This document shows positions 5,107 to 28,225 of a DNA stretch of 29,644 nucleotides, piece by piece (position 1 is the stretch's first letter; every line of letters starts with the position of its first letter). Source of the DNA: Candidatus Methylomirabilota bacterium. Lineage in GTDB: Bacteria > Methylomirabilota > Methylomirabilia > Rokubacteriales > CSP1-6. The position numbers were made by a program, and so were the translations under genes. The stretch is taken from assembly GCA_046726415.1 (NCBI GenBank), contig JBKPAK010000059.1, positions 1-29,644 on the forward strand, given 5' to 3'. The notes beneath the pieces were generated by a model. It made no database searches and was not told where the DNA came from. It worked only from the letters and a program-made list of their open reading frames with translations.

Positions 5107-7491
<2,385 letters not shown>

Positions 7492-7519
7492 TCAGGCGGT
7501 GGGTCCTGCCGTCGCTCCC

Positions 7520-8298
7520 TTGGATGAGAATGTCACACCCTTGGCGAGCCCACTCGGCCAGCGAGCGCACGTCGTCCTGGACGAGGGCACGCGCCTCGTC
7601 CACCGCCCCGCCGTCGAGGTACGGCATGCCGCAACATCGCTGGGTGGGCAGGGTCACCGCCACTCCGTTCTTCTCGAGCACGCGGACGGCTGCGCGGCCC
7701 ACAGCGGGCTGGTGATACTCGACCTGACAGGTGGCGAAGAGGGCCACCGTTCGCGCCGGCGCGGGGGTCCGCGGGCGCCGGCGAAACCAGGTTGAGAAGG
7801 TCGGCCGCTGAAAGCGCGTGAGATTGCGGTCCTTGTGAATGCCGAGAACGGCCTGCATGAACGCCCGGTGCACGGACACCTCGTTCATCCAGTTCGACAG
7901 GGGCGCAGTCAGGCTGCCCAGCTTACCCACCAGCTCGGTGTTGCCGAGGACGCGATCTTGCAGACTCACCCCGCCGGCGCGGGTCTGGGCGGCGCGAGCC
8001 CGCAGCATCAACCGGGGAAAGTCGCCCTCCCAGCGATGGGGCGGCGTGTACGGGCAGTAGTTGTAGCAGAGCTTGCACTGGTAGCAGAGGTCCACTACTT
8101 CCTTGACATCGGCGGCGGGCAGATTCTCGACGTCCCCGTCGACGGCGTGCACGTCCAGCCGGTCGAACAGCACCTTGAACGATGGACAGAGGGGCAGACA
8201 GCGACGGCAGCCTGCGCAGATGTCGTAGACGCGGCGCAACTGTGGTCGGCCTTGTGGGGCTCCCAGAACTCGGCCGCCCGAAAGTCCAGCGTTCCCAT
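7520..8298 (-). pseudogene. GlpC/heterodisulfide-reductase-like Fe-S oxidoreductase (4Fe-4S + CCG domain), frameshifted and 3'-truncated
   Basis: ATG 8298 gives MGTLDFRAAEFW; frameshift near 8243 into LRRVYDICAGCRRCLPLCPSF, CYQCKLCYNYCP, QRCCGMP. Family-like sequence is lost after GCDILIQG (~7520); the ORF continues in low-complexity sequence to 7292. Confidence 0.8.
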
Positions 8299-8395
8299 GC
8301 CATCTCTGCTAATCTTCGCTACCCATCCGAGGCCATCTCGGCGCGCGCCGCCTGGCCGGTCCCCTCCCCGGGGACAGGCGACCGGCGGGCTCGCG

Positions 8396-8845
8396 CTAGA
8401 TCGCCTCCGCCGGCTCCTTGCCCTTGATCTGCGTAAGTCCCTTGTTGAACCGCCCGGCGTGCGACTTCCCGGCCTTGGCGAGCGTCTCGAACCACTCCGA
8501 CAGCTCGGCGAAGCCCTCATCGCGCGCAGTCTTGGCCATGCCGGGATACATCTGGGTGTATTCGTACGTCTCCCCCGCCACGGCCGCCTTCAGATTGAGC
8601 TCCGTCTTGCCCATGGGCTCGCCGGTGGCCGGATCGCCCACTTCCTTGAGGAAGTCGAGGTACCCGAAGGCGTGCCCGGCCTCGGCGTCCGCCGTGTCCT
8701 TGAACAGGCCGGCGATGTCGGGAAAGCCCTCGATATCGGCCACCCGGGCGAAGTAGAGGTAGCGGCGGTTCGCCTGCGACTCCCCGGCGAACGCCTCCTT
8801 CAGGTTGTCGAGGCTCTTCGTGTTCTTGAGCGACTTCCCGGCCAT
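8396..8845 (-). CDS. rbr: Rubrerythrin-family di-iron protein (short form, no rubredoxin domain)
   Basis: AGGAGG RBS; MAGKSLKNTKSLDNLKEAFAGESQANRRYLYFA...EAGHA...GETYEYTQMYPGMA...ETLAKAGKSHA. The last ExxH appears as GKSH. Confidence 0.9.
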   Translation of the reverse strand: MAGKSLKNTKSLDNLKEAFAGESQANRRYLYFARVADIEGFPDIAGLFKDTADAEAGHAFGYLDFLKEVGDPATGEPMGKTELNLKAAVAGETYEYTQMYPGMAKTARDEGFAELSEWFETLAKAGKSHAGRFNKGLTQIKGKEPAEAI

Positions 8846-9315
8846 GACGACGCCTCCTGTGAGGGGTTGCGGCGGCGACAGGCCCCGCAGCGGCCGTAGA
8901 ACTCGACGCGATGGCTCAGGATCTCCAGCCCGGGAACGGGAGCCGCCGGCGCCGGCGTTGGCCGCCGGCGCGGGACGTCGAGGACGCGCCCACAGGCCAC
9001 GCAAGTGAAGTGGTCGTGCGGGGCGAGGTTGCCGTCGAAGCGGAGCCCGGTGGGTTCCGCGCGCTCCCGCACGAGGCCCTCGGCGGCCAGCCGCCGGAGG
9101 TTCCGGTACACCGTGCCCAGGCTCACCCGGGGCAGGCGCCGCCGCACCGACTCGTACACCAGCGAGGCCGAGGGGTGCGCGTCGGTGGCGCGGACCACTT
9201 CGAGAATCACCCGCCGCGGTCGGGTGAGGCGCAGGCCGCGGGCCCGCAGGGCATCGCTCGGCGAGCCGGCGTCGGCGCGGGAGGGGGGCGGGAGCTTTTT
9301 AGGAATCATTCTCAA
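8800..9315 (-). CDS. Fur-family transcriptional repressor (PerR/FurA-like)
   Basis: RLTRPRRVILEVV..HPSA..VSLGTVYRNL..HDHFTCVAC..EFYGRCGAC with two CxxC zinc motifs. Start uncertain (TTG 9315 or ATG 9309). The C-tail overlaps the rubrerythrin start. Confidence 0.9.
   Translation of the reverse strand: MRMIPKKLPPPSRADAGSPSDALRARGLRLTRPRRVILEVVRATDAHPSASLVYESVRRRLPRVSLGTVYRNLRRLAAEGLVRERAEPTGLRFDGNLAPHDHFTCVACGRVLDVPRRRPTPAPAAPVPGLEILSHRVEFYGRCGACRRRNPSQEASSWPGSRSRTRRASTT
9299..9315. promoter_or_regulatory. Fur/PerR-type operator
   Basis: TTAGGAATCATTCTCAA is an imperfect AT-rich palindrome in GC-rich DNA; the minus strand reads TGAGAAT-G-ATTCCTA, matching the Fur 7-1-7 pattern. Confidence 0.7.
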
Positions 9316-9366: not shown

Positions 9367-10040
9367 ACGCCGCTTGCGCTGGCGCTACCAGCACTACGGC
9401 TATGACGGCTTGCTCGATCGCCGCCGGCAGATTCCCGCGCTGCGGCGGGTGCCCGTCGCGGAGTTGCAGCGAATCCTGCGTACCGAGTGCGTAGCGCTAC
9501 CTCGGCTTCAATGTGCGGCACTTCTGCCACGTCGCCCGCCGCGAGCACGGCCTCACCTTCTCCTACACGCTGGTCAAGACGGCTCTGCAGGGGCGGGCCT
9601 GGCGCCCAAGCGCCGCCCGCGGGGCCGTCACCGCCGGCGCCGCGAGCCCCGGCCGTGCTTCGGTGAACTGTTCCACCTCGACGGCAGTCGCCACCCCTGG
9701 CTGGCCCTCGTCCCGGACGCCATGCTGCCCCTGCTCGTCGTGGTGGACGACGCCACCAAGCACCTGCTCTACGCCCAGCTCGTGGAGGGCGGGGAGAGTA
9801 CGGCGGCCATCATGACGGCGTTGCGCGAGGTCCTGACGACCGTGGGCCTGCTGGGAGCGCTGTACACCGACCGCGCCGGCTGGGCCGTCTACACGCCGAC
9901 CTCCGGCACCGCCCCCGACCGCACCCAGCTCGCCCAGGTCGGCCGCTGCCCTGGCCCGGCTCGGCATCGAGCACATCCTCGGGCACTCCCCGCACGCCCG
10001 CGGCCGCCGCGAGCGGGCCAACGGCACCCTGCAGGGCGTG
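9367..10040 (+). pseudogene. ISNCY/IS481-like transposase fragment with multiple frameshifts
   Basis: Pieced across frames: RRLRWRYQHYGYDGLLDRR..FNVRHF..SYTLVKTALQ..RRREPRPCFGELFHLDGSRH..VVDDAT..LYTDRAG..QVGR..LGIEHI..SPHARGRRERANGTLQG; truncated at both ends. Confidence 0.8.
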
Positions 10041-10351
10041 TCCCTTCATTTGCCGACCATCAATTTCCTGAAGCAGAACACCGACGAGCGGATGACGATT
10101 ATGGGCAGCTCCGCGATGGGTTTCGCCTTGGGTTTTCCGGATAACTTTGTGGATGACGGACGCTTCGGTTACGCGAGCGGGAGGAAACCGGAAATCATAG
10201 TTTTTGCGCAGGAAAGCGAGCAGTCGGTGCAGGAGGCACCTGCTTTTCTACCTTTCTACCCCCGCTTCCGCCCTACATACGCAGACTGCTGGCGGAAGAG
10301 TACCGGCGTGTTTATGAGAATCCGGGGTTTAAGGTTTATGCTCGACGATGA
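10040..10351 (+). pseudogene. C-terminal fragment of a protein, possibly a GT39/ArnT-like membrane glycosyltransferase tail
   Basis: LPTINFLKQNT..IMGSSAMGFALGFPDNFVDDGRFGYASGRKPEIIVF, then in another frame YIRRLLAEEYRRVYENPGFKVYARR* (TGA 10349-10351), convergent with the next gene. Family call is from recalled similarity only. Confidence 0.4.
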
Positions 10352-10357
10352 GCGAAG

Positions 10358-11368
10358 CTACAAGATAGACTGTGTCCTGGTCTTTTGGATGACGAGCGAG
10401 AGATTCGGCACCAGCGTCATTCCTGAAATCAACTTAAAACCCTTGATGGATGCTTTGAGCAGGCGTTTCAACGCGATCAATCTGGTTTGATTGAGCGCGG
10501 AATACCAGAGGTCTATGCGGTCGCGCAGGCCCTGTTTCGATGGCTCTAACAGCACCGGATGCTGAGCTGCCCCTTCGCGCTCAAGGATGCTTAAGATTTC
10601 CCGCTCGGTGCCGCCGCGGATGCCCCGGCGCAGGAGCGTCTGCCACGGCTCGGTCTTGTCAATCCGTTTTGAGAATGTCCGCGCGGCGGCCAGAGCCAGC
10701 CGGTCTGGCATGTAGTTAATCAGGGGCAATCCGGTCGTGTGATGTTCGATGGGGAAATAACGATGCGGAGTCATGTTCAGAAACAGATAACCATCGTCGC
10801 TGATGGCATCCCAGATTTTGGGAATTATCATCAGCCGTTCGTCCGGCAAGAGATGCTCGTAAACTGCGCTCAGGATGACCCAAGCGAATTTACCGATTCC
10901 TGCCGGAAGTTCTGAGCCGGCAGGCGACTGTAGTAATTTGACGTTCGTGCACTGGTAGTGAGCGGCACGCGCACGCGCCACACGCAAGAGCGTTTCATCA
11001 AGCTCCACGCCAACAATTTCCGTTTGCGGAAACAGACGATGCAGAATCATTGAGGACGCGCCGCTGCCGCAGCCGAAATCAAGAATTCTTTTATTCTCAA
11101 AATCGCTCACGTCGAAATACGCCATCAGGTCTGTTTCCAAATCCCTGCGCACATACTCGGCGTCTTCTTCGCGCGCCATCTCGTCGCACAGATAGGCCGG
11201 GCCTTTCACTTCGAGAATCAGACGGATGAGACTTACCGGATACGAGGTCTGCCAGCTATCTCTGGGCATGAAAAGATTTCTGTGAGGAACGACCTTGACG
11301 CGCTTCATGCCTCCGGGCAACGCTTCAATCCGTATCTCTGCATCCGTATGATTCAAGGTGGTTGACAT
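10358..11368 (-). CDS. Class I SAM-dependent methyltransferase
   Basis: Motif I ILDFGCGSG, then IVGVELD and SAVYEHL; 336-aa intact ORF. Confidence 0.9.
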   Translation of the reverse strand: MSTTLNHTDAEIRIEALPGGMKRVKVVPHRNLFMPRDSWQTSYPVSLIRLILEVKGPAYLCDEMAREEDAEYVRRDLETDLMAYFDVSDFENKRILDFGCGSGASSMILHRLFPQTEIVGVELDETLLRVARARAAHYQCTNVKLLQSPAGSELPAGIGKFAWVILSAVYEHLLPDERLMIIPKIWDAISDDGYLFLNMTPHRYFPIEHHTTGLPLINYMPDRLALAAARTFSKRIDKTEPWQTLLRRGIRGGTEREILSILEREGAAQHPVLLEPSKQGLRDRIDLWYSALNQTRLIALKRLLKASIKGFKLISGMTLVPNLSLVIQKTRTQSIL

Positions 11369-11377
11369 CTATACTTC

Positions 11378-12235
11378 TCAATCTTTCACGAACACGAACT
11401 CGTTGCAGCCCAATCCGACGCCGCCGCATTTCAGCTTGGTCAAAGTAAACCCGCGCGTCCGGTAGAAATCAAAAATCTCTTCGGGTCGAGCCACCTCGTA
11501 AGGATGGCCGCCGACCCAATCAATGATGTCGCGCCAGCGGTTCATGCCTCTCGACTGGTCGTAATTTGTCCATGAGCGCCAGTAATCCTGCGGGCGCAAG
11601 CTAAGGAGCGAGCGCAGCAGCGCCTTCCCTTCTTCGGGGGCGATGACGAGGGCGGCAAACGGAGTGCGCAAGGGTTTGGGCAACTCGTTGTATTTTCGTT
11701 TAATCCATTTCCGGCGCGCGCTCTGGCGGCCCGTGTCGTTATAGATGGCGATGAATAATTTTCCGCTCCGCTTGACCGGCAGCCTGGCATTATCGAGCGC
11801 CTGCCACATCTGCCCGGTGTGATGCAGCACGCCCCATGGATAAACGACATCAAACGTGCCCAGAGATGTCAGGTATTCACGATGCAAGGCGGACTCTTCG
11901 GCAATCGTCCAGCTCTCATCGTCCGGAAAGTAGCGTCGCCGCAGCTCGGTCGTGCAGGCGACCGAATGCGGGTCGAAATCAAAGGAATGGACGCACGCTC
12001 CCAAACGACGCGCCGCCAGGCTGAAGAGGCCGCTGCCGCTGCCGATGTCGAGAAAACTCTTTCCCGTGAGGTCTTCGGTCTCCAACATCTGCCTGAGTGA
12101 TTTCTCGGCTTCCGTGATGCGCTTGTCGTTTAAGAGCGAGAGGAAACGAGACCAGCTTTTCCCAAACTCGAACCTGTCGCCGCGCGCAACTGCATCGGCG
12201 TGCAGGCCCTTTTCACTTGTGATTTCAGATACCAT
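11378..12235 (-). CDS. Class I SAM-dependent methyltransferase
   Basis: RFEFGKSW, FLDIGSGSGLFSLAA, HSFDFD, FDVVYPWGVLHHTG, CNEFVF. ATG 12235 preferred over the GTG at 12277. Confidence 0.88.
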   Translation of the reverse strand: MVSEITSEKGLHADAVARGDRFEFGKSWSRFLSLLNDKRITEAEKSLRQMLETEDLTGKSFLDIGSGSGLFSLAARRLGACVHSFDFDPHSVACTTELRRRYFPDDESWTIAEESALHREYLTSLGTFDVVYPWGVLHHTGQMWQALDNARLPVKRSGKLFIAIYNDTGRQSARRKWIKRKYNELPKPLRTPFAALVIAPEEGKALLRSLLSLRPQDYWRSWTNYDQSRGMNRWRDIIDWVGGHPYEVARPEEIFDFYRTRGFTLTKLKCGGVGLGCNEFVFVKD

Positions 12236-12400
12236 TTTGGGTCTTGGCCTAAGCCAGGTAGATAATCCGTTGCCCACCCTGCGAGTTTTTCCTGGCGCTC
12301 TTTGCGGTTAAGTTCTTATTTTAAACGCAAAGGAAATCCCGCCGGTGGGCGCAAACAACTTTTTATGCTCTGCCTGCTCTCTTCATCTCCTTTTTACCGT

Positions 12401-15507: not shown

Positions 15508-16784
15508 ATGGCGTCGATCCGCCGGCGCAAGCGTGCCAAGCGCGATGTTTGGTGTGTGGACTACCGGGACGGCGCTGGCGTACGCCGCCGCATGAACGCT
15601 CTAACGCGAGAGATTGCCGAGGATCTCCTCGCCGAGAAGATCCGCGAGAGCCGTCAGGCGGCTCCGGAGGTGATCGATCGCGAGATCACCCCCGCCGCGT
15701 ACGCCGCGCGCTGGCTCGCCCAGATCGAGACCGACATCAAATACCGAACGCACGTCTCCTACTCGGAGACCCTCGACCGCTACATCCTGCCCACCCTCGG
15801 GCGTGTGAAGGTGCGTGCGCTCCATCGCGGCGTCATCAGGGATCTCCTTGGGCGACGGCGAGGTCAGGGCCTGAGCAAGAACACGGTCCGTCTAATCCGC
15901 GGAAGTGCTGTCGGTGCTCCTCGGCGACGCCGTCGACGATGGAATCATCCGACGAACCCGGCGCTCCAGATGGGACGGCGACGGCGGAAGCGGGCGGACT
16001 CGCTCAGCCAGGCAGAGCGCCTCAGGAGGGTTCGCCCAATGTCGAGCGAGCAGCTCGCTGCCTTCCTAAAGGCCGCGCTGCGTCCAGAGCACCACCGGCT
16101 TTACCCGCTCTTTCTCACGCTCGCACGTGCGGGCCTGCGCCCGGGCGAGGCCTTTGGCCTCCAGTGGGACGACGTCGACTTCGTCGAGCGGACGCTCCAG
16201 GTCGAGCGGAGCTACTCGCGCGGGTCGCTGGACACGACGAAGACCGGCGAGAGTCGCCACGTCGACATGCGCCAGGAGCTCGCGCGCGTGCTCCGCCGGC
16301 TCGAGGTCGACCGCGCCGCGGAGACGCTCGCCGCGGGTGGAAGGCACGGCCGCCGTGGGTGTTCTGCTCCGAGGTCGGCACGCCGCGGGACCTCTACAAC
16401 GTGACGCGCGTCTTCAAGCGCACCCTCAAGGCGGCGAGCCTGCCGAACTTCCGGCTCTACGACCTCCGCCACACGTTCGCCACGCTTCTCCTAGCCCAGA
16501 GCGCGCCGATCACCTACGTCGCTGCGCAGCTCGGCCACAGCAAGCCGACGACCACGCTCCAGTGGTACGCGCACTGGCTGCCAAGCGGCCGGCGCAGCTT
16601 CGTGGACGCGCTGGATGATCCGAGCGTGGTACCGGAGGGCACGGTGGTCGGCCTCGAGGCCCCCGTGGTGACGATCGAGAACCCGGTCGTCAAACTGCCA
16701 CCGCGGCGCGGTGGCACGCCACGTGGCACCAATTTGGCGCCCCATTTTCAGAATCTTCGAATGGCGAGTGCCAAGTGGGCGTGA
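15508..16784 (+). pseudogene. Phage-type tyrosine integrase, frameshifted
   Basis: WCVDYRD..GLSKNTVRLIR; compensating shifts near 15903 and 15948 hide VLSVLLGDAVDDGII; AGLRPGEA, TTKTG; shift near 16330 to RLYDLRHTFAT..QLGHS..TLQWY. Confidence 0.88.
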
Positions 16785-18493: not shown

Positions 18494-21400
18494 ATGAGGT
18501 GTCCGGTGTGCGCGCACGAGAATCCGCCGCCGGCGAGGTTTTGCCGGGAGTGCGGAGCGCGCCTTGCCCCTCGGTGCGCTGAGTGCGATGCCGAGCTTCC
18601 GGCGGCGGCAAAGTTCTGTGCCGAGTGTGGGCACCCGGTCGGTGGACCATCCACGGTGCAGAGCCGCTTCAGTTCGCCCCAGTCCTACACCCCCAAGCAC
18701 CTTGCCGAGAGGATCCTCACCTCTCGGTCCGCCCTCGAAGGCGAGCGCAAGCAGGTGACCATGCTCTTCGCCGACGTACGGGGGTCCATGGAACTGCTCG
18801 CCGGCCAAGACCCCGAGGAGGCGCGGACGATCCTCGACCCGGTCCTCGAGCTGATGATGGAGGCCGTCCACCGGTACGAGGGCACGGTCAACCAGGTGAT
18901 GGGCGATGGGATCATGGCGCTGTTCGGCGCGCCCATCGCCCAGGAAGACCACGCCGTTCGCGCGTGCTACGCCGCGTTGCGGATGCAGGAGGCGGTCAAG
19001 CGGCACTCGGAGGGCGGACGCCGTGTCACGGGGAGTCCAATCCAGATCCGCGTCGGACTCAACTCCGGTGACGTCGTCGTCCGCTCGATCGGTTCCGACT
19101 TGAGAATGGACTACTCCGCGATCGGGCAGGCCACGCATCTCGCCGCTCGCATGGAACAGCTGGCAGCGCCGGGCTCGATCCTGATGACCGCCCACTCGCT
19201 GCGCCTGGCCGAGGCCTACGTCGAGGTGAAGCCGCTCGGCCTCGTTCACGTGAAGGGGATGAGCCAGCCCGTGGAAGTCTACGAGCTCACGAGGGCGAGC
19301 CGGGTGCGGACGCGTTTCCAGGCGTCGGCGGCGCGCGGCCTCACGCCTTTCGTGGGGCGCGACGTGGAGGTCGACGAACTTCATCGGGCGCTCGAGCGTG
19401 CCCGCGAGGGCCACGGACAGCTCTGCGCAATCGTCGGGCAGCCGGGCGTCGGCAAGTCCCGCCTCTTCCACGAGTTCATCCATTCCCCGGTCACCGCCGA
19501 CTGGCTGGTGCTCGAGAGCGAGTCGATCTCGTACGGGAAGGTCCGGCCCTACCTGCCCTTCATCGATCTGCTGAAGGGCTACTTCCGCATCGAAGATCGC
19601 GACGACGAGCGAAAGATCCGCGAAAAGGTCACCGGTCGGCTTCTCAGCGCCGACGAGGCCCTCCCCGCCTCGCTGCCCGCGTTTCTCGCGCTCCTCGACG
19701 TCGCCGTGGTCGATGCGCGGTGGCAGACGCTCGATCCCCCCCAGCGCCGCCACGAGACTCTCAACGCCGTCCGGCGGTTGCTCCTGTGGGAGACGCGAAT
19801 TCAGCCGGTCCTGATCGCGATCGAGAACCTTCAGTGGATCGATTCCGAGAGCCAGACCTTGCTCGACAGCCTCGTCGAGTGCGCGCCCACCGCCCGCATG
19901 CTCCTCCTCGTCAATTATCGCCCCGGGTATCGGCACGCCTGGGGTGACCGGACTTACTACAGTCAGATCCGGCTCGATCCGCTGCCTCCGAAGAGCGCCG
20001 AGGAGTTCCTGGACGCCCTCGTCGGCGACGACGCCGGGCTCCAGCAGCTCAAGCAGGTATTAATCGAGCGCACGGAGGGCAATCCCCTCTTCCTGGAGGA
20101 GAGCGTTCGCGCGTTGATCGAGACCCACGCGCTGATCGGGGAGCGCGGAGTGTACCGCGCGGCCAAGGACGTCAGCGCCCCCGAGGTGGCCCCGACGGTG
20201 CAGGCCGTGCTGGCCGCGCGCATCGACCGTCTGGCCAGCGCCGACAAGCACCTGCTCCAATGCGCGGCGGTCATCGGGAAGGAGGTTCCGTTCACCCTGC
20301 TCCGAGCCCTCGCCGACGAACGTGACGACGAGGTCCGTGGCGGCCTCCGGCGACTGCAGGACGCCGAGTTGCTGTACGAGACGGCGCTCTTTCCCGAGCT
20401 CGAGTACACGTTCAAGCACGCGCTCACCCACGAGGTCGCCTACGGTAGTCTGCTCCACGACCGTCGGCGCCTGCTCCACGCCCGGATCGTCGAGGTCATC
20501 GAGGCGCTCTATCCCGACCGCGTGGCCGAGCATGTGGAGCGACTGGCCAGCCACGCCTTCCGGGCGGAAATGTGGGACCGGGCGTGGACCTATCTACGGC
20601 AGGCCGGCACGAAGGCGTTGTCGCGCTCGGCCAACCGGGAGGCGGCTGCCTACTTCGAACAGGCCTTGATGGCCCTCCCGCATCTGCCGGAGACGACGGA
20701 GGGGCTCGCCCAGGCGATCGATGTGCGCTTCGACCTGCGCAATGCCCTCTTGCCCCTCGGGGAGTTCGACCGCTTCTATGGCTACCTCCGCGAAGCAGAG
20801 GCGTTGGCCCTCAAGCTGGACGATCGGCGGCGGCTGGGTTGGGTCTCGGTCTACGTGTGCCACTACCTGTGGATGACGGGACGCTCGACTGAGGCCCGCG
20901 CGGTCGGTCAGAGCGCGTGTGACATCGCGGCAACCCTTGGTGATTTTCCGCTCACCGTCGTGGCGAACTTCTATCTCGGCCTGGCCTGCTTCGCGGGCGG
21001 CGACTACCCCCGGGCCGCGGGGCTTCTGCGAAGCGCCTTGCGGTCGCTCGAGGGTGACCTGAGTCGAGAGCGCTGTGGCCTGGCCGGGTTTCCGGCTGCC
21101 ATGTCGCGCTCCTACCTGGGGCTGGCGGTGGGGCAGCTCGGCGACTTCGATGAAGGCATCGCGCACGTGGAGGAAGGTGTGCGGTGCGCCGAGGCGGCCG
21201 ATCACCCGTACAGCCTCATCGTCGCGTGCTGGAGTCTCGGATCCCTCTACGGCATCAGGGGGAATCTCGGCGACGCGGCCCGCGTGCTCGAGCGCGCCCG
21301 TGCCCTGTGCCGCGAGTGGAAGCTTGCCGTGCTGTCGCCGCTCGTCACCGGCCCCCTGGGCTACGTGCACGCGCTCTCGGGTCGGCTCGCGCAAGGCTTG

Positions 21401-21859
21401 AGTCTGCTCCGCGAGGCCCGCGACGCCATGGAGTCCATGGGCCGGGGCGCCTACCACTCGCTGGTCGTCGTGCAGCTCGGCGAGGCGGCGGCGCGCGCCG
21501 ATCGACTCGACGAGGCGCTCGGCCTGGCCGAGCGGGCCCTCGCGCTCACGCGCGAGCGCGGTGAACGGGGCGGCGAGGCTCTCGCCCTCCACCTCCTCGG
21601 CGAGATCGAACGGCATCGCGCTTTCCCCGACGTGGAAACGGCGAGGGGCCGCTACCGCGCGGCGCTCGCGCTGGCCGATGGTCTCGGCATGCGCCCGCTC
21701 GTCGCCCGCTGCCACCTCGGTCTCGGTGCCCTCCATCGGCGGGCCGGACGGCCGCGCGAGGCCGGCGCGCATCTCGCCGAAGCCGCCGGGATGTTTCACG
21801 CGATGCAAATGCCCTTTTGGTCGGAGCTGGCGGAAGCCGAGCGGCGAGCGCTGGCGTGA
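18494..21859 (+). CDS. Class III adenylate/guanylate cyclase with double zinc ribbon, STAND AAA ATPase and TPR repeats
   Basis: Four CxxC at the N-terminus; GERKQVTMLFADVRGS, MGDGIMALFGAP, THLAARMEQ; FVGR; Walker A GQPGVGKS; GNPLFLEE; YTFKHAL; helical TPR C-terminus; 1121 aa. Confidence 0.93.
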   Translation: MRCPVCAHENPPPARFCRECGARLAPRCAECDAELPAAAKFCAECGHPVGGPSTVQSRFSSPQSYTPKHLAERILTSRSALEGERKQVTMLFADVRGSMELLAGQDPEEARTILDPVLELMMEAVHRYEGTVNQVMGDGIMALFGAPIAQEDHAVRACYAALRMQEAVKRHSEGGRRVTGSPIQIRVGLNSGDVVVRSIGSDLRMDYSAIGQATHLAARMEQLAAPGSILMTAHSLRLAEAYVEVKPLGLVHVKGMSQPVEVYELTRASRVRTRFQASAARGLTPFVGRDVEVDELHRALERAREGHGQLCAIVGQPGVGKSRLFHEFIHSPVTADWLVLESESISYGKVRPYLPFIDLLKGYFRIEDRDDERKIREKVTGRLLSADEALPASLPAFLALLDVAVVDARWQTLDPPQRRHETLNAVRRLLLWETRIQPVLIAIENLQWIDSESQTLLDSLVECAPTARMLLLVNYRPGYRHAWGDRTYYSQIRLDPLPPKSAEEFLDALVGDDAGLQQLKQVLIERTEGNPLFLEESVRALIETHALIGERGVYRAAKDVSAPEVAPTVQAVLAARIDRLASADKHLLQCAAVIGKEVPFTLLRALADERDDEVRGGLRRLQDAELLYETALFPELEYTFKHALTHEVAYGSLLHDRRRLLHARIVEVIEALYPDRVAEHVERLASHAFRAEMWDRAWTYLRQAGTKALSRSANREAAAYFEQALMALPHLPETTEGLAQAIDVRFDLRNALLPLGEFDRFYGYLREAEALALKLDDRRRLGWVSVYVCHYLWMTGRSTEARAVGQSACDIAATLGDFPLTVVANFYLGLACFAGGDYPRAAGLLRSALRSLEGDLSRERCGLAGFPAAMSRSYLGLAVGQLGDFDEGIAHVEEGVRCAEAADHPYSLIVACWSLGSLYGIRGNLGDAARVLERARALCREWKLAVLSPLVTGPLGYVHALSGRLAQGLSLLREARDAMESMGRGAYHSLVVVQLGEAAARADRLDEALGLAERALALTRERGERGGEALALHLLGEIERHRAFPDVETARGRYRAALALADGLGMRPLVARCHLGLGALHRRAGRPREAGAHLAEAAGMFHAMQMPFWSELAEAERRALA

Positions 21860-21932
21860 GGGGGCGCTCGGTCTCATCGACGGTCGTGCGTCTGGTCACT
21901 ACCCGCTAACCGGAATCGTCCGGGAGGGGCCC

Positions 21933-23189
21933 ATGGACAACCGCGTGGGAATCGTCGCTTACGACTGCCTGTCCCCCCTCGGCAGCACCCTGCCCGCCAC
22001 CTGGAAGCAGCTCGTCAACAACCGCAGCGGCGTGACGCTCATCGATCGCTACGATCCGAGCCGGGAGACGCTTGTCGGCGTGTCATCGATCGCCTTTGCC
22101 GGGCAAGTGCCTCTGACGTACGCTGAGATGGCGGGCTCGCGCGAGCGATACGCGCGATCCCCCGAACCGTCGTCGCACTGCGTGCGGACCGTGTGCGCGC
22201 GCGTCCTCGCCGAGATCGGGTTCGATGTCTCCCGACACGATCCCCAGCGCATCGCGCTCTTCGGCGCCACCGCCCTCACCGCCCAGATCTCCCAGCACGC
22301 GCTCACCACGACGGGCCGCCCGTACGTCAACTTCATCCTGAACCAGTGCCACAACATCCCGCTGGCCATGGTGGCCCGGGAGTTTGGCCTCCAGGGGCCG
22401 TCCTTCAGCATCGGGGGCGCCTGCGCCTCGGGCAATCACGCCTTGTTCCTGGCCTACCACTTCATCAAGGCCGGTCTCGTCGACTGCGCGCTCGTCGCCG
22501 GCTTCGAGTTTCCCCTCTTGCCGATCTGTGTGGGGGGGTTCGAGTGGCTGCGCGCGCTCTACAAGAGAGACAAACGCGATGACCGCGCCTACGACCATCC
22601 GGAGGCGGCGAGCCGGCCCTTCTCGCGAGACCGGCGGGGCTTCGTACTCGCCGAAGCGGTGGGCGTGGTGTTCCTCAGTGGGCTTGAATACGCGCGGCAG
22701 TCGGCGTGGCCGGTGAAGGCCATCATCGAAGGCGGGTACATGAACTCGGATGGCGATCATCTGACGCGAATGTCGCCGCGCAATATCGTCATCTGCATGC
22801 GCGAGGCCATCAAGGCGGCTGGCCGCCGCCCCGATGACATCGAGTGCGTCAACGCGCACGCGACGTCGACTCCGGTCGGCGATGCGGCGGAACTGCGGGG
22901 CCTCCACGAAGTGTTTGGCCATCGGCTGACGGAGATCCCCGTGGTGGCCAATAAGTCGCAGCTGGGCCATTCTCTGGGCGCGTCGGCCGTGCTGGAGCTG
23001 ATGTTCGCCGTGGAAGGGATGAACGCGGGCGTGGTGCTGCCGACGCTCAATCACGTGCGGGATCCGGACTTGCCCGATGCGTTCATCCCCCCGTCGGCGA
23101 TAGAGTACGAGCATCGAGCAACGCTTCTGAACTCGTTCGGTTTCGGTGGCACGAACGCATCGCTGGTGGTGGGAGCGGTCGGCGGGTGA
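21933..23189 (+). CDS. Beta-ketoacyl-ACP synthase (FabF/KAS II-like, divergent)
   Basis: GGAGG RBS; catalytic Cys in GACASG, His in NAHATST and KSQLGHSLGA; SRPFSRDRRGFV; NSFGFGGTN. Confidence 0.93.
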   Translation: MDNRVGIVAYDCLSPLGSTLPATWKQLVNNRSGVTLIDRYDPSRETLVGVSSIAFAGQVPLTYAEMAGSRERYARSPEPSSHCVRTVCARVLAEIGFDVSRHDPQRIALFGATALTAQISQHALTTTGRPYVNFILNQCHNIPLAMVAREFGLQGPSFSIGGACASGNHALFLAYHFIKAGLVDCALVAGFEFPLLPICVGGFEWLRALYKRDKRDDRAYDHPEAASRPFSRDRRGFVLAEAVGVVFLSGLEYARQSAWPVKAIIEGGYMNSDGDHLTRMSPRNIVICMREAIKAAGRRPDDIECVNAHATSTPVGDAAELRGLHEVFGHRLTEIPVVANKSQLGHSLGASAVLELMFAVEGMNAGVVLPTLNHVRDPDLPDAFIPPSAIEYEHRATLLNSFGFGGTNASLVVGAVGG

Positions 23190-23229
23190 CCAGCTCCGAG
23201 AGAAGGACCGGACGAAAGGAGCCTCGGGC

Positions 23230-23514
23230 ATGATGCGGACACGGGATGAGGCGCAGGTGGTATGGGATCTCTTGTGGTCGTCTCTGGCCGGCGGCAACTA
23301 CGATGTCGAAGCCCTCAAGAGGCAGGCGGGCGACGGGTCCCACTTCGTGGAGGACCTGCACATCGACAGTCTGGATCTGGTGGAGTTCTACGTCCGAGTC
23401 CAGGACCATTTTCACGTCGATTTCGAGGGGGACGAGTATCCGAATCTGACCTCGGTGACGGCCATCACGACCAGCCTGCAGGCCAAGGCGGACAGCCCCA
23501 CAACCTCGCCCTGA
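23230..23514 (+). CDS. Acyl carrier protein
   Basis: AAGGAG RBS; FVEDLHIDSLDLVEF contains the phosphopantetheine Ser; acidic, ~94 aa. Confidence 0.88.
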   Translation: MMRTRDEAQVVWDLLWSSLAGGNYDVEALKRQAGDGSHFVEDLHIDSLDLVEFYVRVQDHFHVDFEGDEYPNLTSVTAITTSLQAKADSPTTSP

Positions 23515-23532
23515 GCGACGGGAGATGGCGCC

Positions 23533-24612
23533 ATGAGCCTTGCGGCGTTCCTGCAGGTCCCCGAGCTGGAAGCGCGGTACCGGAAGATCAAGAAGTTCTT
23601 TTTCCTCCGCGAGTCGGCTTACGACGTGACGAGTGCTTGTCAGCTCCGGTGCGACGGCTGCTACTACTTCGCGGGGGAGCGAGCGAACGTGGAGGACGAC
23701 CGAAACCCGGAACGCTGGCGGGCGTTGCTGGAGGGGGAAAAGGCACGAGGAATCAACTACGTCAACCTCGCCGGCGCCGAGCCGGCGCTGGTGCCCCGGG
23801 TGCTCCGCGCCTGCTACGAGACGATTTCCCTCGGCACGATTTTCACCAACGGGCTGAGGCGGATTGATTCCGACGTCCGGTATCGAGTCCAGATCTCCGT
23901 GTGGGGCGACCACACCGGCGACCCGAAGTATCGGAAATACGCCAGCGGCAAGGAGGGCCCCTACTGCCTGCCCCTCCAGTTGAAGAACTACCGGAACGAC
24001 GACCGGGTGATCTTCGTCTACACCTTCAACAGCGAGAACGTGCAGCAGGTGGACGAAGTCCTGCGGGCGGTCGGGGGCGAAGGTCACCGGATCACCTTCA
24101 ACATCTTCAGCACTCCTCTGGGGAGCCAGTCCGGCCTCACCCTCCGCGAAACGCTGACGCGGACCCGGGAGAAGATGCTCGAGGCGAGCGAGATGTACCC
24201 GCAGACGGTCGTCTACTCCGAGTACAACGCGGAGGTCCACACGCAGGAGGCGAGTTTGCGCCAGCAGTTCGGCTGCCCGTACCCGCGCGCCGCGAAGGAG
24301 GAGGGCCGGAGGTTTGGCATCGCCACGACCTTCAGGAACTACCGCGCCGACCTCACCGATACCGCCGACTCCTGCTGCGTTCCCCACACCGACTGTTCTG
24401 ACTGTCGGCACTACGCCGCCGGGAGCGCGATCGTGACCTCGAGACTGGACCGCCACGTGCAATCCGAGACCCGCTTCCGGGGTTGGCTGGACTACGTCGA
24501 CACGTACCTGGCGATCTGGATCCTCGGTTACCAGAAAGGCGCGAATCTCTATCGACAGCTCTTCACGGGGACCGGGGACACCTCGGGCGTCATTCGGCAC
24601 CCGGTCGAGTAA
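23533..24612 (+). CDS. Radical SAM enzyme with a C-terminal Cys cluster (SPASM/twitch-like)
   Basis: CQLRCDGCYY (CxxxCxxC), LAGAEP, FTNG; C-terminal GCP and CCVPHTDCSDC. Confidence 0.9.
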   Translation: MSLAAFLQVPELEARYRKIKKFFFLRESAYDVTSACQLRCDGCYYFAGERANVEDDRNPERWRALLEGEKARGINYVNLAGAEPALVPRVLRACYETISLGTIFTNGLRRIDSDVRYRVQISVWGDHTGDPKYRKYASGKEGPYCLPLQLKNYRNDDRVIFVYTFNSENVQQVDEVLRAVGGEGHRITFNIFSTPLGSQSGLTLRETLTRTREKMLEASEMYPQTVVYSEYNAEVHTQEASLRQQFGCPYPRAAKEEGRRFGIATTFRNYRADLTDTADSCCVPHTDCSDCRHYAAGSAIVTSRLDRHVQSETRFRGWLDYVDTYLAIWILGYQKGANLYRQLFTGTGDTSGVIRHPVE

Positions 24613-24694
24613 GCGCCACGCGAGGCTAGATCCCGGCCAGCGAACTGCCGAAGAGGATGCGGCCGTCCCTCCCACGACATCTCGTCCGGCCCAG

Positions 24695-24826
24695 CGACTG
24701 CCACGCGGCATGCGGCGCCAGCAGGCCGTGATACCTCAGCAAGTGCGTGCGCGGGGCGAGGATCAAGACGCTGAGCTCCTGGAGCAACTCCGGCGGATCC
24801 AGCAACAAGTGCGTCGCGCCATCGGC
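24695..24826 (-). pseudogene. IS91-like (Y2) transposase internal relic
   Basis: DGATHLLLDPPELLQELSVLILAPRTHLLRYHGLLAPHAAW. Confidence 0.7.
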
Positions 24827-24859
24827 CCGGAGTGACGTCACATACTGCACAGTCTTCCC

Positions 24860-25350
24860 CGTCGTCGTCACCGTCCATTATTCATGGCACCCACTGGCCG
24901 GCCAGACGCTGAGCTGTAAGGGGCAGCAACCGCTGCCCACCGGTGAGCGCGCTTTCCTGTGTCTTCTGCCCGACGGCACGTGGTCCCTGCTGCCGGAGTG
25001 GATGACGTCGCGGGAAACGCTGCGCGCGGTGCGAGTTGGGTGTCCGAGCCCCACGTCTCCAGCGAGGCCCTGAACGAACTGGTCACCTTCCTGCGCGCTC
25101 TCCGCGGGCCGCATCAGACAATCGCAGCCGAGACGACGACTCCTACTGACAAGGGGGCGCGGCCCGATGAGACGACGCGGCACGAGACGGAGCGAGCGGC
25201 AACGGGAGCTCGAGTGGACGGACAACGCTTCGCTGGGCCGAGCTGCCGGCCGACCTCCGCGACCAGCTCGCCGCCGAGCTGAGAGTCCTGCTGGAGCGCG
25301 CGGCGACGCGACAGGCCGGCCGGGTCGCCTGGAGCGGGCGCGATGAGTAG
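24860..25350 (+). pseudogene. Small accessory ORFs that precede large serine recombinases (DUF5372-like ORF + short ORF), frameshifted
   Basis: VTVHYSWHPLAGQ..LPDGTWSLLPEWMT / EPHVSSEALNELVTFL, then RWAELPADLRDQLAAELRVLL..DE*, whose stop overlaps the recombinase ATG (ATGAGTAG). Family call from recall. Confidence 0.5.
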
Positions 25351-26420
25351 CGAGAAGATCCGGGCCGAGCACCTGAGCCGGCGGGCATTCGTGTACGTTC
25401 GCCAATCGTCCCTCGGGCAGGTCCGTCAGCATCGGGAGAGTCGGCAACGCCAGTACGACCTGGAGCAGCACGCCCGCGCGCTGGGCGGGGTGGACGTCGT
25501 GGTGATCGATGAGGATCAGGGCAAGTCCGGGGCGACCGCCGTCGGACGGGCCGGCTTCCAGCGCCTGGTGGCCGACGTGAGCCTGGGCCGCGTGGGCGCG
25601 GTCGTGGGCTTGGAAGTCTCCCGTCTGGCCCGGAACAATCGCGACTGGTACCAGCTCCTGGATCTATGTGGCTTGATGAACACGTTGATCGTGGATGCCG
25701 AGGGCGTCTACGATCCCCGCCAGCTCAATGACCGGTTGCTGCGCGGGCTGAAGGGGACGCTGAGCGAGGCGGAGCTGGGCTGGATCCGGCAGCGGGCGTG
25801 GGAGGGGGCCTTGACGAAGGCGCGCCGCGGCGAGCTGGTCATCGGCTTGCCGGTGGGCTACGTGCGCACCCGCGAGGGCCGGACGGACAAGCATCCCGAC
25901 CAGCGGGTGCAGCACGCGGTGCGGCTCGTGTTCGAGAAGTTCACGGAGCTCGGCAGTGTGCGGCAGAGCGGGTTGTGGTTCCGGCAGCAGGAGATCGCGC
26001 TGCCCGGCAACGATCGCGACCCCGCCTGGGGCGAACGAGTGAAGTGGCGATTCCCGACGTACAGCGCGGCGCGGCGGATCCTGCGTAATCCCTTCTACGC
26101 TGGCGCCTATGCCTTCGGCCGCACGACGAAGCAGATCACCATCGTCGAAGGCGTGGCGCGCGCCAGGCGGATGCCGCGCGGCGGCCGTGCCGACTGGATC
26201 ACGTTGATCCGGGATCACCACGAGCCGTACATTGCCTGGGACGTCTATGAGCGCAACCAGGCACTGATCGCCCACAACGCTACGATAAAGGGGGCCCGCG
26301 GGCGCGGAGCGATTCGCGGAGGCCCGAGTCTCCTGCCGGGCCTGCTGCGCTGTGGGCACTGTGGCCGGAAGCTGCACGTGCGGTACGGCGGGTAAGGCGG
26401 CCGGGTCCCGCGCTACGAGT
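25343..26420 (+). pseudogene. Large serine recombinase (resolvase + recombinase + zinc ribbon), truncated
   Basis: AFVYVRQSS (catalytic Ser), DEDQGKSG, EVSRLARN, ILRNPFYAG, LLRCGHCGRKL; in-frame TAA at 26393-26395, then GGRVPRYE, then homology ends. Confidence 0.88.
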
Positions 26421-26442
26421 CCATCTGTCAGCCCCTCGGCGA

Positions 26443-26480
26443 ACGCTGAGTGGTCAGCGGAATCGCGGACCACTCAGCGT
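26443..26480. repeat. Inverted repeat / stem-loop with a 13-bp perfect stem
   Basis: ACGCTGAGTGGTC (26443-26455) and GACCACTCAGCGT (26468-26480). Confidence 0.8.
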
Positions 26481-26651
26481 GGCGCTCAGGCTCGCACGAA
26501 GCGCCGGGCGCCGTCAAAGGACCGAAGCGAGGCGTGTCGGGAGCCCCATGATTTGACCGGTTCCCGGCGCGTCACCCGGCCAAATGCCTCTGTGGTATCG
26601 CAACGCTGGGCAAAAATGCCCTGCACAGCGCCCGCAAAACCGGGAGGCCGC

Positions 26652-26985
26652 ATGAGCAAACGACTCGCCTTCATCGACCTCGACGGCACGCTGCTCGGAT
26701 CGGATAAAACCGTGAGCGCCGCCAATCGCGCCGCTCTCGACCGCCTGCGGGCGGCGAACGTGCAAATCGTCATTGCCTCCGGCCGGCACCATCGCAATAT
26801 CGCCGCACTCGCCGGCATCGGCGAACCGGGCTGGATCCGCTCGTCGCAAGGCGCCGTCGTGCGCAATGAACAGACGGGCGCGACCCTGCTCGAGCTCTCC
26901 ATGCAGAGCGACCGCATAAAGGGAATCTGCGAACGCGCCCGAGCCGGGGGAATGACTGTGATCGCCTATCACCGATCGGGCGTCA
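26652..26985 (+). pseudogene. Cof-type HAD-IIB hydrolase, 3'-truncated
   Basis: GGAGG RBS; FIDLDGTLL (motif I), IASGR (motif II), SQGAVV; motifs III/IV are absent and the ORF runs into the 3' end of the opposing integrase. Confidence 0.85.
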
Positions 26986-28225
26986 GGCTATGGCCCGTTT
27001 CTGCCTTCAAATTCGATGAGTCAGCGCAGACAGGCTTCTCGACGTCATCGGCAGCGTTGTGATTAGCGTTGGGAGTCGAGTGCGCATTTTCCCTCTGTTC
27101 TTGGAGGCGCTTCGCCCACAGTCTGTCGGCGGTGGGCAGCCACCGCGAGTACACCGACAGCGTGATGGCGGGCGAGGCATGGCCGAGCATTGCGCTCACG
27201 TACGTAATCGGCGCCCCCGCAGCGAGCAGATGGGAGGCGAAACTGTGGCGGAGGTCGTACAACCGGTGCGGTGGCAGGGGAGGCTTCGCTCTCCGTAGGC
27301 CCTGAAAGGCCCGCCGCACGCCAGACACGCTCCGCGTGGCGCCAGACGGCGCCGGGAAGATCCACGAATCGTCGCCAGCTTTGCAGCGTGCCTCCTGCCA
27401 AATCCGCCACTGTGTGAGCGCTGACGTGAGCCGGGGCGTCAGCTCGACGTCTCGCTCCTCACCCGTCTTTGTGCCTTTGATCTCCCCGCCGTCCGCCAGC
27501 GCCCTCTCGATGCGTAGGATCTGATCGGCAGGGTTGAAGTCCGCCCACTTGAGCGCGAGCGCTTCCTGCGGGCGAAGGCCCGCATCGGCCAGGGTGAGGA
27601 ACAGCGGGCCGAGGGCGCGCACCCGTCCCGCTCGGGTCAGGAGTGCCTCTAGGTCAGGGACCGTCAGGGGGCGGATGACCTTCGCCGTGGCGACATTGTT
27701 CCTACCGCGACGCTTCTTCCGCCGCTGGCGTCGTGGTGCGAGCGCTCGGACCGGATTCGCGCTGATCTTCCCGTCCTCGACGGCGCCCCCGAGCACGACG
27801 CTCAGGGTGGCCTTCACGAGCCGTACGGTGTTCCCGCTCAGGCCAGCCTGCGCCTTGTCGGTCAGGAGTGCCTTGATTGCGGCGACGTCGATACTCACGA
27901 GCGAGCGATCGCCGAGCGCTGGCAGGATGGTCCGGTTAAGGTGTTGCCGGTAGCTTGCCACCGTTGCCGACTCCAGCTCCGGGGCGTTCCGCTCCAGCCA
28001 CTTTGTCGCGTAGTCCTTCAGAAGGACAACGGGCAAGGGCGCCTTCTCCACGGCGATCCCCGCTTCCCCGCGCAGGATCTTCGCCCGCTGCACGCTGGCC
28101 AGCTCCCTGGCGACCGTACGCGAGATGTTACGGCCCAGACGGGCGACGTGCCGCCGCCCTTGGTGGTGGAAGTCGAGCCACCATGTCTTGCCCCGCTGGT
28201 AGATGCCGTCGCCTGGTCGGGCCAT
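26969..28225 (-). CDS. Tyrosine integrase, intact
   Basis: GIYQRGKTWWLDF arm-binding domain; AGLRPQEA, GTKTG, RLYDLRHSFAS, MLGHAS, TLSVY; 418 aa. Confidence 0.93.
   Translation of the reverse strand: MARPGDGIYQRGKTWWLDFHHQGRRHVARLGRNISRTVARELASVQRAKILRGEAGIAVEKAPLPVVLLKDYATKWLERNAPELESATVASYRQHLNRTILPALGDRSLVSIDVAAIKALLTDKAQAGLSGNTVRLVKATLSVVLGGAVEDGKISANPVRALAPRRQRRKKRRGRNNVATAKVIRPLTVPDLEALLTRAGRVRALGPLFLTLADAGLRPQEALALKWADFNPADQILRIERALADGGEIKGTKTGEERDVELTPRLTSALTQWRIWQEARCKAGDDSWIFPAPSGATRSVSGVRRAFQGLRRAKPPLPPHRLYDLRHSFASHLLAAGAPITYVSAMLGHASPAITLSVYSRWLPTADRLWAKRLQEQRENAHSTPNANHNAADDVEKPVCADSSNLKAETGHSLTPDR

Follow-up and report, generated by a model that had tools for sequence, protein, structure and literature searches.

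What can a bacterium make with one condensing enzyme, one acyl carrier protein (ACP) and one radical S-adenosylmethionine (SAM) enzyme (rSAM) encoded side by side in DNA rich in mobile elements? The question is raised by positions 21,933 to 24,612 of a 29,644-nucleotide stretch from a Candidatus Methylomirabilota bacterium (contig JBKPAK010000059.1; the whole stretch that was analysed is called the window), where genes for a FabF-like beta-ketoacyl synthase (ketosynthase, KS), an ACP and an rSAM follow one another, all intact and in the same orientation, with intergenic gaps of 40 and 18 bp. An earlier note on this DNA had singled them out as a minimal cluster for an ACP-tethered lipid or metabolite. 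We put the probability that the three genes constitute a self-contained, horizontally mobile acyl-modification module at roughly 0.6. As judged from gene and protein comparisons, the trio probably makes a modified acyl chain, and the most likely role of the rSAM is to alter an acyl chain that the KS has assembled on its dedicated carrier.

Linkage and distribution of the three genes

One genome per GTDB species was scanned with an alignment of the rSAM, yielding 79 loci, which tblastn with the three window proteins sorted into Group A, Group B and a single remnant (L076). Group A (11 loci, L001 to L010 and L078; rSAM 61-70% and KS 49-69% identical to those of the window) contains the closest relatives, and all 11 carry KS-ACP-rSAM in the window's order. 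Group B consists of 67 loci (33 Thermodesulfobacteriota, 20 Myxococcota, 5 Spirochaetota, 2 Pseudomonadota, 1 Bacteroidota and 6 unassigned) with the usual order ACP-rSAM1-rSAM2-KS-KS, in which the first of the two tandem rSAMs after the ACP is 43-50% identical to the window's rSAM and the second is a paralogue of 25-30% identity. Of the 73 full-length matches with at least 400 bp of upstream sequence, 66 have an ACP-like open reading frame (ORF) directly upstream of the rSAM, on the same strand and with a gap of ≤371 bp; of the 53 loci with at least 3 kb on both sides, 51 have a KS no more than 5 kb away (exceptions: L023 and L050). By hand count, 38 longest-contig values (in bp) were common to the top 120 rSAM and top 120 KS metagenome matches, implying the same contigs; the linkage therefore extends to metagenomes. 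Pairwise identities of KS and rSAM were correlated (r = 0.83; 45 pairs from 10 loci), with none of 5000 permutations reaching as high a value, as would be expected for co-inheritance. Before any of this was known, the earlier note had named rSAM homologues unlinked to KS and ACP as the outcome that would speak against it; the opposite was found, and because the homologues are so tightly linked to both partners the three genes are regarded as a functional unit. The trio is no chance neighbourhood, and a compact KS-ACP-rSAM module recurs in uncultured bacteria of several phyla. It is also worth recording that two of the metagenomic rSAMs (P0047 and P0113) and two trio-type KSs (P0451 and P0504) share the same longest contig of 123,991 bp, and one genome may carry two copies of the module.

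The KS has both its N- and C-terminal domains (PF00109, 106 bits; PF02801, 92.5 bits), and the Cys-His-His triad that it had been said to retain is present as Cys164 (22422), His309 (22857) and His346 (22968), aligned with the triad of Escherichia coli FabF. Against the FabF equivalog TIGR03150 it scored 249.3 bits, below the cut-off of 493.75. A KS tree was built from 45 rows, taken from every Group A locus but L001, from one Group B locus in three, and from E. coli FabF as the single housekeeping FabF reference; the KS ORF of L001, which begins at an upstream start and runs to 579 aa, was kept out of the KS alignment, the tree and the identity correlation. In this phylogeny, a comparison with FabF that had been proposed as a check, the window KS clusters with nine trio KSs on a long stem (Shimodaira-Hasegawa-like approximate likelihood ratio test [SH-aLRT] support 100), and the trio clade joins two Group B KS clades (SH-aLRT 100), leaving out E. 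coli FabF and the other FabF-like genes of the loci. The segments once described as atypical for FabF are genuine: at the FabF-motif columns the nine related trio KSs share Y-D/E-C-L/I-S/T, ILNQC(H/Q)N(I/V)PL and (L/F)(D/E)W(L/V)xALY(R/K)RD, with single deviations. The window KS is a member of a distinct, rSAM-associated KS clade apart from housekeeping FabF. It is the only KS in the window and has no triad-less chain-length factor (CLF) as partner, so that the KS/CLF pair of a type II polyketide synthase (PKS) is missing. In the Group B KS pairs both members carry Cys-His-His. The second KS of the extended acidobacterial clusters described below has Cys-Gln-His in its place and forms a strongly supported clade of its own near FabF (Table 1).

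The ACP matched PF00550 at 21.6 bits, just above the cut-off of 20.8, and no NCBIfam ACP model came near its cut-off (best: 31.1 bits against 76, AcpP-type equivalogs). Its phosphopantetheine serine is S47 (23368-23370), and D46-S47-L48 is invariant in the alignment of trio ACPs, which share the signature ILW..GGxYD..DSLD..FFLR. The tryptophan in the first helix that had been noted as unusual, W16, is kept in 10 of the 11 aligned trio ACPs. By their sequences, the trio ACPs form a signature group of their own outside housekeeping AcpP.

Table 1. Coordinates of the trio, of its flanking signals and boundary, and of features in related loci (window positions unless a locus is named)
Feature	Position	Strand	Remarks
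Shine-Dalgarno-like GGGAGGGG	21922..21929	+	3 nt 5' of the KS ATG; read off the sequence
KS, FabF-like beta-ketoacyl synthase, 418 aa	21933..23189	+	Pfam PF00109 + PF02801
Shine-Dalgarno-like AAAGGAG	23215..23221	+	ahead of the ACP start; read off the sequence
Dedicated ACP, 94 aa	23230..23514	+	Pfam PF00550
Shine-Dalgarno-like GGGAGA	23520..23525	+	ahead of the rSAM start; read off the sequence
Radical SAM enzyme (rSAM), 359 aa, uncurated family	23533..24612	+	Cys motifs, weak PF04055
IS91-type (Y2_Tnp) transposase, C-terminal fragment	24626..24871	-	PF04986; apparent module boundary, not part of the module
Cys-Gln-His second KS	L002 17752-19152		
Cys-Gln-His second KS	L004 17588-18865		
Cys-Gln-His second KS	L005 8802-10073		
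Cys-Gln-His second KS	L008 11416-12675		
ACP-TauD dioxygenase-rSAM-nonribosomal peptide synthetase	L080 7362-16154		Methylomagnum plasmid
PaaA-like protein-rSAM-PaaI thioesterase or MaoC dehydratase	L081 8240-11046		Burkholderia stagnalis plasmid
PaaA-like protein-rSAM-PaaI thioesterase or MaoC dehydratase	L082 8174-10529		Alteromonas plasmid

Completeness of the window's copy

The tight spacing, shared orientation, intactness and ribosome-binding sites reported at the outset hold exactly (Table 1). Purine-rich sites resembling ribosome-binding sites stand 3-9 nt ahead of the ATG in all three genes, and the KS start at 21933 is backed by a 418-aa database protein of 100% identity. No tRNA and no Rfam family turned up in scans of the window, and a promoter/terminator scan of the window or operon gave nothing useful. 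In agreement with the original description, Pfam recognized no reductase, dehydratase, CLF, acyltransferase or thioesterase in the window, nor a phosphopantetheinyl transferase (PPTase).

Such a short gene list raises the possibility, which we consider unlikely, that the trio is what is left of a larger cluster and that the IS91 insertion cost it the rest (second ACP, B12-rSAM, fatty acyl-AMP ligase, FabH, desaturase, second KS), so that the product is no longer made. Flanking gene content could be judged in nine Group A loci, L010 and L078 being too short. In five of these (L002, L004, L005, L006 and L008, all Acidobacteriota) the trio is indeed accompanied by further genes, namely a second ACP and a second KS, a B12-rSAM, a desaturase and a fatty acyl-AMP ligase, with a FabH or SnoaL-like gene in some, and two more (L007 and L009) add only a FabH-type KS III. 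The IS91-type fragment begins just 13 bp past the rSAM stop (PF04986, E = 1.4e-4, profile positions 128-178 of 183; neighbouring ORFs had no Pfam match, and a look for more transposase remnants beside it was negative), and behind a conserved core that ends at about residue 340 the rSAM closes with an unconserved, lineage-specific tail of ~19 residues. These points are outweighed by the loci in which the trio stands alone amid unrelated genes, with no other recognizable lipid gene: L001, from an Acetobacteraceae metagenome-assembled genome (MAG) with flanks of 8.3 and 10 kb, and L003, from a genome recorded as a delta proteobacterium, with 10 kb on each side, where three of the four flanking ORFs tested had no Pfam match at all. 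DNA similarity between the window and L001 (71%) is confined to 21926-23170 and 23529-24551, that is, to the KS and rSAM genes. The three genes are intact, and an rSAM of 98% identity, likewise 359 aa long, exists elsewhere in a collection of 5.8 billion proteins.

The rSAM tree, in which Group B was represented by every third locus only and a mis-framed ORF (L020_9985_11067, a "B_rSAM2" row with a branch length of 10) was disregarded, joins the window with L001 (SH-aLRT 84), then L010 (86), then L003 (95). These four appear to form a non-acidobacterial, trio-only subclade inside Group A, and with SH-aLRT support of 95 the trio-only state is therefore read as a trait of the lineage. With the trio on its own in both L001 and L003, there is no need for the IS91 relic to have removed anything; the suggestion in the earlier note that it had taken further genes with it is not needed, given these two loci, the gene-confined DNA similarity and the trio-only subclade, which point to the relic marking a boundary rather than a deletion. 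The word "minimal" fits the window's lineage and does not fit Group A as a whole, given the five of nine loci with further genes and the two with FabH only.

An integrase fragment lies just upstream of the trio in L007. A decayed remnant of the module was seen in L076, an alphaproteobacterial MAG, where all that is left of a Group A-type rSAM at 9722-10165 is its final ~50 codons (76% identical), joined in frame to the end of a preceding Rieske-type oxygenase gene. Taken together, the trio-only subclade, the gene-confined DNA similarity, the integrase fragment of L007 and the L076 remnant point to a three-gene unit that may move between phyla.

The radical SAM enzyme and its setting

The SAM-cluster motif CxxxCxxC is C36/C40/C43 (23638-23661). 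Family assignments were sparse: PF04055 scored 21.8 bits over residues 32-101, under its gathering cut-off of 29.5, and no NCBIfam rSAM family came close to its cut-off (best: the SkfB model, 27.5 against 300 bits). A search of the 5.8 billion proteins returned 1962 matches at E ≤ 0.001, the best 120 of which (98-58% identity) had generic names only; the ESM Atlas likewise gave generic "radical SAM" clusters only. An exhaustive phmmer search of 1.84 billion representatives found 378 at E ≤ 1e-3, 189 at 1e-10 and 56 at 1e-30, and with just 378 representatives at the loosest threshold the family is taken to be small and well apart from the rest of the superfamily. An AlphaFold model from 128 sequences (mean predicted local distance difference test score [pLDDT] 93.6, predicted template modelling score [pTM] 0.92) replaced a weak AlphaFold2 model from 18 sequences (pLDDT 73.3). 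Foldseek matched it with probability 1.00 to many rSAM structures, the best in the PDB being CteB, anSME, SkfB, SuiB, ChlB and BlsE (template modelling [TM] score ≤0.52, identity 11-21%), and a profile of the family matched SkfB at E = 1.7e-17 over the core only (residues 33-185). By CxxxCxxC and a partial TIM-barrel core in the model, the protein is a member of the radical SAM superfamily; as the best PDB matches do not exceed a TM score of 0.52 and the SkfB profile match covers the core only, it stands nearest the SPASM/twitch neighbourhood and outside any described family. The SPASM subgroup is marked by a seven-Cys motif. In the window's rSAM Pfam found no SPASM domain at E ≤ 0.01, and just three or four C-terminal cysteines are conserved in the family, short of those seven.

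The extra cysteine set that had been noticed is borne out. It consists of C281-C282-x5-C288-x2-C291 (24373-24405) together with C248, and among 59 full-length family rows C281 is retained in 58, C288 in 56, C291 in 56 and C282 in 41, compared with 57 for C36/C40/C43; C145 and C248 are limited to the close subfamily in the same alignment. C281, C282, C288 and C291 are a candidate auxiliary Fe-S site. Given their place behind the core, and SkfB and anSME among the closest relatives, they may bind a single auxiliary cluster of the twitch kind. Three near-universal cysteines and a variable fourth would allow either a fully ligated electron-transfer cluster, as in the anSME-type dehydrogenases, or a cluster with an open site.

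An open site would also suit a sulfur-inserting or cluster-sacrificing enzyme of the LipA/BioB kind that thiolates the ACP-bound chain, with the C-terminal three-Cys cluster as donor or open-site anchor; we hold this to be still less probable than the loss of neighbouring genes. LipA is an rSAM with an auxiliary cluster, and its substrate is an acyl chain borne by a small carrier protein; the retention pattern (C281, C288 and C291 near-universal, C282 in 41 of 59 rows) would fit a cluster with one free iron. Mycobacterium tuberculosis LipA ranked 24th for the first, weaker model and MoaA 45th for the better one, far below the SPASM/twitch-type enzymes in the fold ranking, and no LipA, BioB or MiaB family scored in NCBIfam. 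Moreover, the auxiliary motif of LipA is N-terminal, whereas that of the window's rSAM is C-terminal.

Kinship with SkfB, CteB, SuiB and ChlB might instead suggest a maturase for peptides of the RiPP type (made by the ribosome and modified after translation), with KS and ACP merely supplying the lipid of a lipopeptide. This seems very improbable. The similarity to SkfB, strong as its profile E-value is, spans nothing beyond the rSAM core, and no SPASM domain was found at E ≤ 0.01; the Cys motif begins at residue 36, and the 35 residues ahead of it are too few for an N-terminal recognition domain. The gaps between the three genes leave no space for a precursor gene, and the Group A maps have no conserved small non-ACP ORF beside the trio.

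Distant relatives of the rSAM were found in other settings. One (P0196) joins an rSAM domain to a thioesterase and a TubC-type docking domain in a natural fusion, and in another (P0195) a single ORF runs on past the rSAM domain into the beginning of an AMP-binding domain (profile positions 2-95 only); their domain make-up would place distant family members in thiotemplate assembly lines. A protein search of a plasmid collection gave rSAM relatives of only 26-31% identity, in cultured bacteria, within the three cassettes of Table 1. In the fusions and the plasmid cassettes, distant relatives keep a thioester or carrier context. The Alteromonas cassette adjoins a Tn3 transposase on several plasmids.

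The window itself is rich in mobile elements by Pfam (an rve_3 integrase fragment at its start, integrases, a recombinase and the IS91 fragment). The statement that most mobile genes here are broken holds in part. A tyrosine (phage-type) integrase gene at 15508-16784 (+) has its Pfam domain halves in two overlapping frames, which suggests a frameshift, and a serine recombinase at 25343-26395 (+) is short (350 aa, Resolvase and Recombinase domains); the integrase at 26969-28225 appears whole. The recombinase runs into an ORF with a partial HAD-hydrolase domain (25343-27062, +) and looks truncated, abutting another gene fragment. Directly ahead of the KS, 18494-21859 (+) encodes a 1121-aa STAND-like protein with zinc-ribbon, class III nucleotide cyclase, AAA_16 and TPR domains. 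The same cyclase-AAA-TPR architecture stands beside the KS in L001 (3193-6606, -), and L009 has a TIR-AAA/NACHT-TPR protein nearby. Such a neighbour could be a regulator or a coincidence; as a part of the module it was rejected, the window and L001 copies being only 28% identical and oppositely oriented. Farther upstream, the GC content falls from about 0.68-0.72 to 0.55 in 10000-12300, a stretch that is likely a foreign island and holds two adjacent SAM-dependent methyltransferase genes (10358-11368 and 11378-12277, both -). The katG gene (5107-7305, -), adjoined by genes for a rubrerythrin and a CCG/4Fe-4S protein (7292-9004), has about 80% DNA identity to plasmids of Rhizobium, Sinorhizobium and Methylocystis, a likeness that, taken alone, hints at an alphaproteobacterial host, and was the sole match when the first 25 kb of the window were compared with plasmids by megablast. 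That the module serves phage defence or is some other cargo of mobile elements (with viperin-like nucleotide chemistry, for example) and not a lipid or metabolite pathway is barely credible: it does sit among integrase, recombinase and transposase genes beside a STAND-type protein, and PADLOC gave a weak pVip match (27.6 bits), but that match is limited to the generic SAM-cluster region (residues 30-109), KS and ACP have no PADLOC match, no defence assignment was made, and the acidobacterial trios sit in plain lipid-type clusters.

Proposed function and comparison with known systems

The acyl-modification module that we favour would work as follows. A host PPTase and malonyl transacylase would activate and load the ACP, and the KS would condense a primer (a host acyl chain from type II fatty acid synthesis, or acetyl from decarboxylated malonyl-ACP) with malonyl-ACP to give, on the dedicated ACP, a beta-ketoacyl chain or a longer one. 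Next, the rSAM would cleave SAM and abstract a hydrogen from the tethered chain, its candidate second Fe-S site serving in electron transfer or substrate binding, and the result could be an acyl group modified by C-C bond formation or cyclisation, by desaturation or by oxidation, which host enzymes would release or incorporate. More tentatively, this could become the first rSAM family shown to act on ACP-tethered chains of a type II KS/ACP system; the trio would then be a self-sufficient, transferable "plug-in" diverting host fatty-acid intermediates to a structurally new (carbocyclic, cross-linked or otherwise radical-modified) acyl product, and the simplest handle on the tandem rSAMs of ladderane-type clusters.

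Several observations weigh against this interpretation. The nearest solved relatives of the rSAM (SkfB, CteB, anSME, SuiB and BlsE) modify peptides or small molecules and not lipids, and they have only the core in common with it (TM score ≤0.52). With no acyltransferase, thioesterase, reductase or PPTase in the window, priming, loading and release rest on assumed host functions. All 79 genome loci come from MAGs, 7 of the 73 loci (L023, L025, L026, L041, L043, L053 and L062) lack an ACP directly upstream, and the co-inheritance statistics also reflect shared ancestry, not function alone.

With KS, ACP and rSAM as its sole parts, the trio is the smallest system for reconstituting the ACP-linked rSAM family. 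Its reaction, if found, would annotate roughly two thousand database proteins and constrain the products of the larger clusters in sulfate reducers, myxobacteria, spirochaetes and Acidobacteriota.

The trio had been said to match no characterized pathway, and this stands: none of its genes has a curated NCBIfam family, and the rSAM corresponds to no named lipid rSAM in the review text available (PMC13459092). The headings of that 2026 review on rSAM enzymes that modify lipids cover Tes, Mss, Gms, GrsA/B, Gmm, Cds, HpnH/J/P/R, Jaw5 and ladderane enzymes still to be identified; going by their names and by the results from NCBIfam and the PDB, none corresponds to the window's family. No paper characterizing the rSAM family or a KS-ACP-rSAM trio was found in the literature searched, which excludes subscription-only papers.

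Among solved enzymes, SkfB, CteB, anSME, SuiB and BlsE are the closest in sequence or fold and, like the window's rSAM (where it is a candidate), have a second, C-terminal Fe-S site ligated by cysteines. The window's enzyme differs in having no RRE domain and no SPASM Pfam match, in its C-C-x5-C-x2-C pattern, and in its partners, which are an ACP and a KS rather than peptides or sugars. LipA offers the likeness of substrate described above, with no family match, a low fold rank and a differently placed auxiliary motif. Jaw5, which accompanies the iterative PKS Jaw4 in jawsamycin biosynthesis, is likewise proposed to work step by step on an acyl chain that grows while bound to a carrier; it is, however, a HemN-like class C enzyme using two SAM with a type I PKS as partner, whereas the window has a free-standing KS and ACP (PMC13459092). 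No HemN-type family scored for the window's rSAM in Pfam or NCBIfam.

Other parallels come from anammox bacteria. The amxACP/amxFabF2-amxFabFmut system of Cluster I resembles the trio in combining a specialized ACP with a specialized FabF homologue near rSAM genes, and this homologue can start chains by decarboxylating malonyl-ACP (bioRxiv 10.64898/2026.05.19.726425). According to the same preprint, the anammox KS is a KS/CLF-like heterodimer with a triad-less partner and the Cluster I rSAM is B12-dependent; the window, in contrast, has a single KS with an intact triad. In the Kuenenia run kuste3339-3343 the order is FabZ-ACP-FabG-rSAM-rSAM, and when anammox genes were expressed heterologously the tandem rSAM proteins were not detected (PMC4790861).

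Clusters pairing fatty-acid-type enzymes with rSAM genes have been flagged since 2009, and the Rattray clusters of Kuenenia and Desulfotalea include a polysaccharide-deacetylase-like protein, phytoene-desaturase-like enzymes and FabF paralogues (PMC2649909). Calls of "ladderane" by antiSMASH extend to Desulfobacterota, Myxococcota and other non-anammox phyla, with no function assigned to them (PMC9902471), and the accessible portions of four sources (PMC2649909, PMC9902471, PMC10139942 and PMC13459092) establish no product or rSAM reaction for such clusters. Group B belongs here by its gene content, as seen by Pfam and NCBIfam on cluster representatives: a FabA/FabZ-like dehydratase (DH) precedes the ACP, a YbgC-type thioesterase and a DH/PPTase protein follow the KS pair, and FabG, ApeI/ApeP-like dehydratases, a LolA-like protein, an acyltransferase, a KS-KS fusion, a phytoene-desaturase-like oxidase, a polysaccharide deacetylase and a B12-binding rSAM also occur. 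When 70 B12-rSAM ORFs were scored against TIGR04072 ([quoted passage not shown]), its cut-off (360 bits) was reached in 32 of the 67 Group B loci, with L073 just under it (345.8); none of five B12-rSAMs from Group A matched the model at E ≤ 1e-70, and the window has no B12-binding rSAM of TIGR04072. In gene content Group B matches the Rattray clusters; no anammox or Desulfotalea record was present among the 79 loci, the named database matches or the cluster look-up. Group B rSAM1 is the core of larger "ladderane-type" lipid clusters in Desulfobacterota, Myxococcota and Spirochaetota, and the Group A rSAMs are its sister group (joint SH-aLRT 99). Ladderane-type clusters resemble the window in that a single operon holds a dedicated ACP together with FabF paralogues and rSAM enzymes. 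The window differs in having one rSAM instead of two, in the order KS-ACP-rSAM as opposed to DH-ACP-rSAM-rSAM-KS-KS, and in lacking the B12-rSAM, phytoene-desaturase-like enzyme, FabZ/FabG, thioesterase, LolA-like and acyltransferase genes. On these comparisons the trio appears to be a compact, previously undescribed variant of the ladderane-type fatty acid synthase/rSAM clusters, built around an uncurated family of ACP-linked rSAM enzymes.

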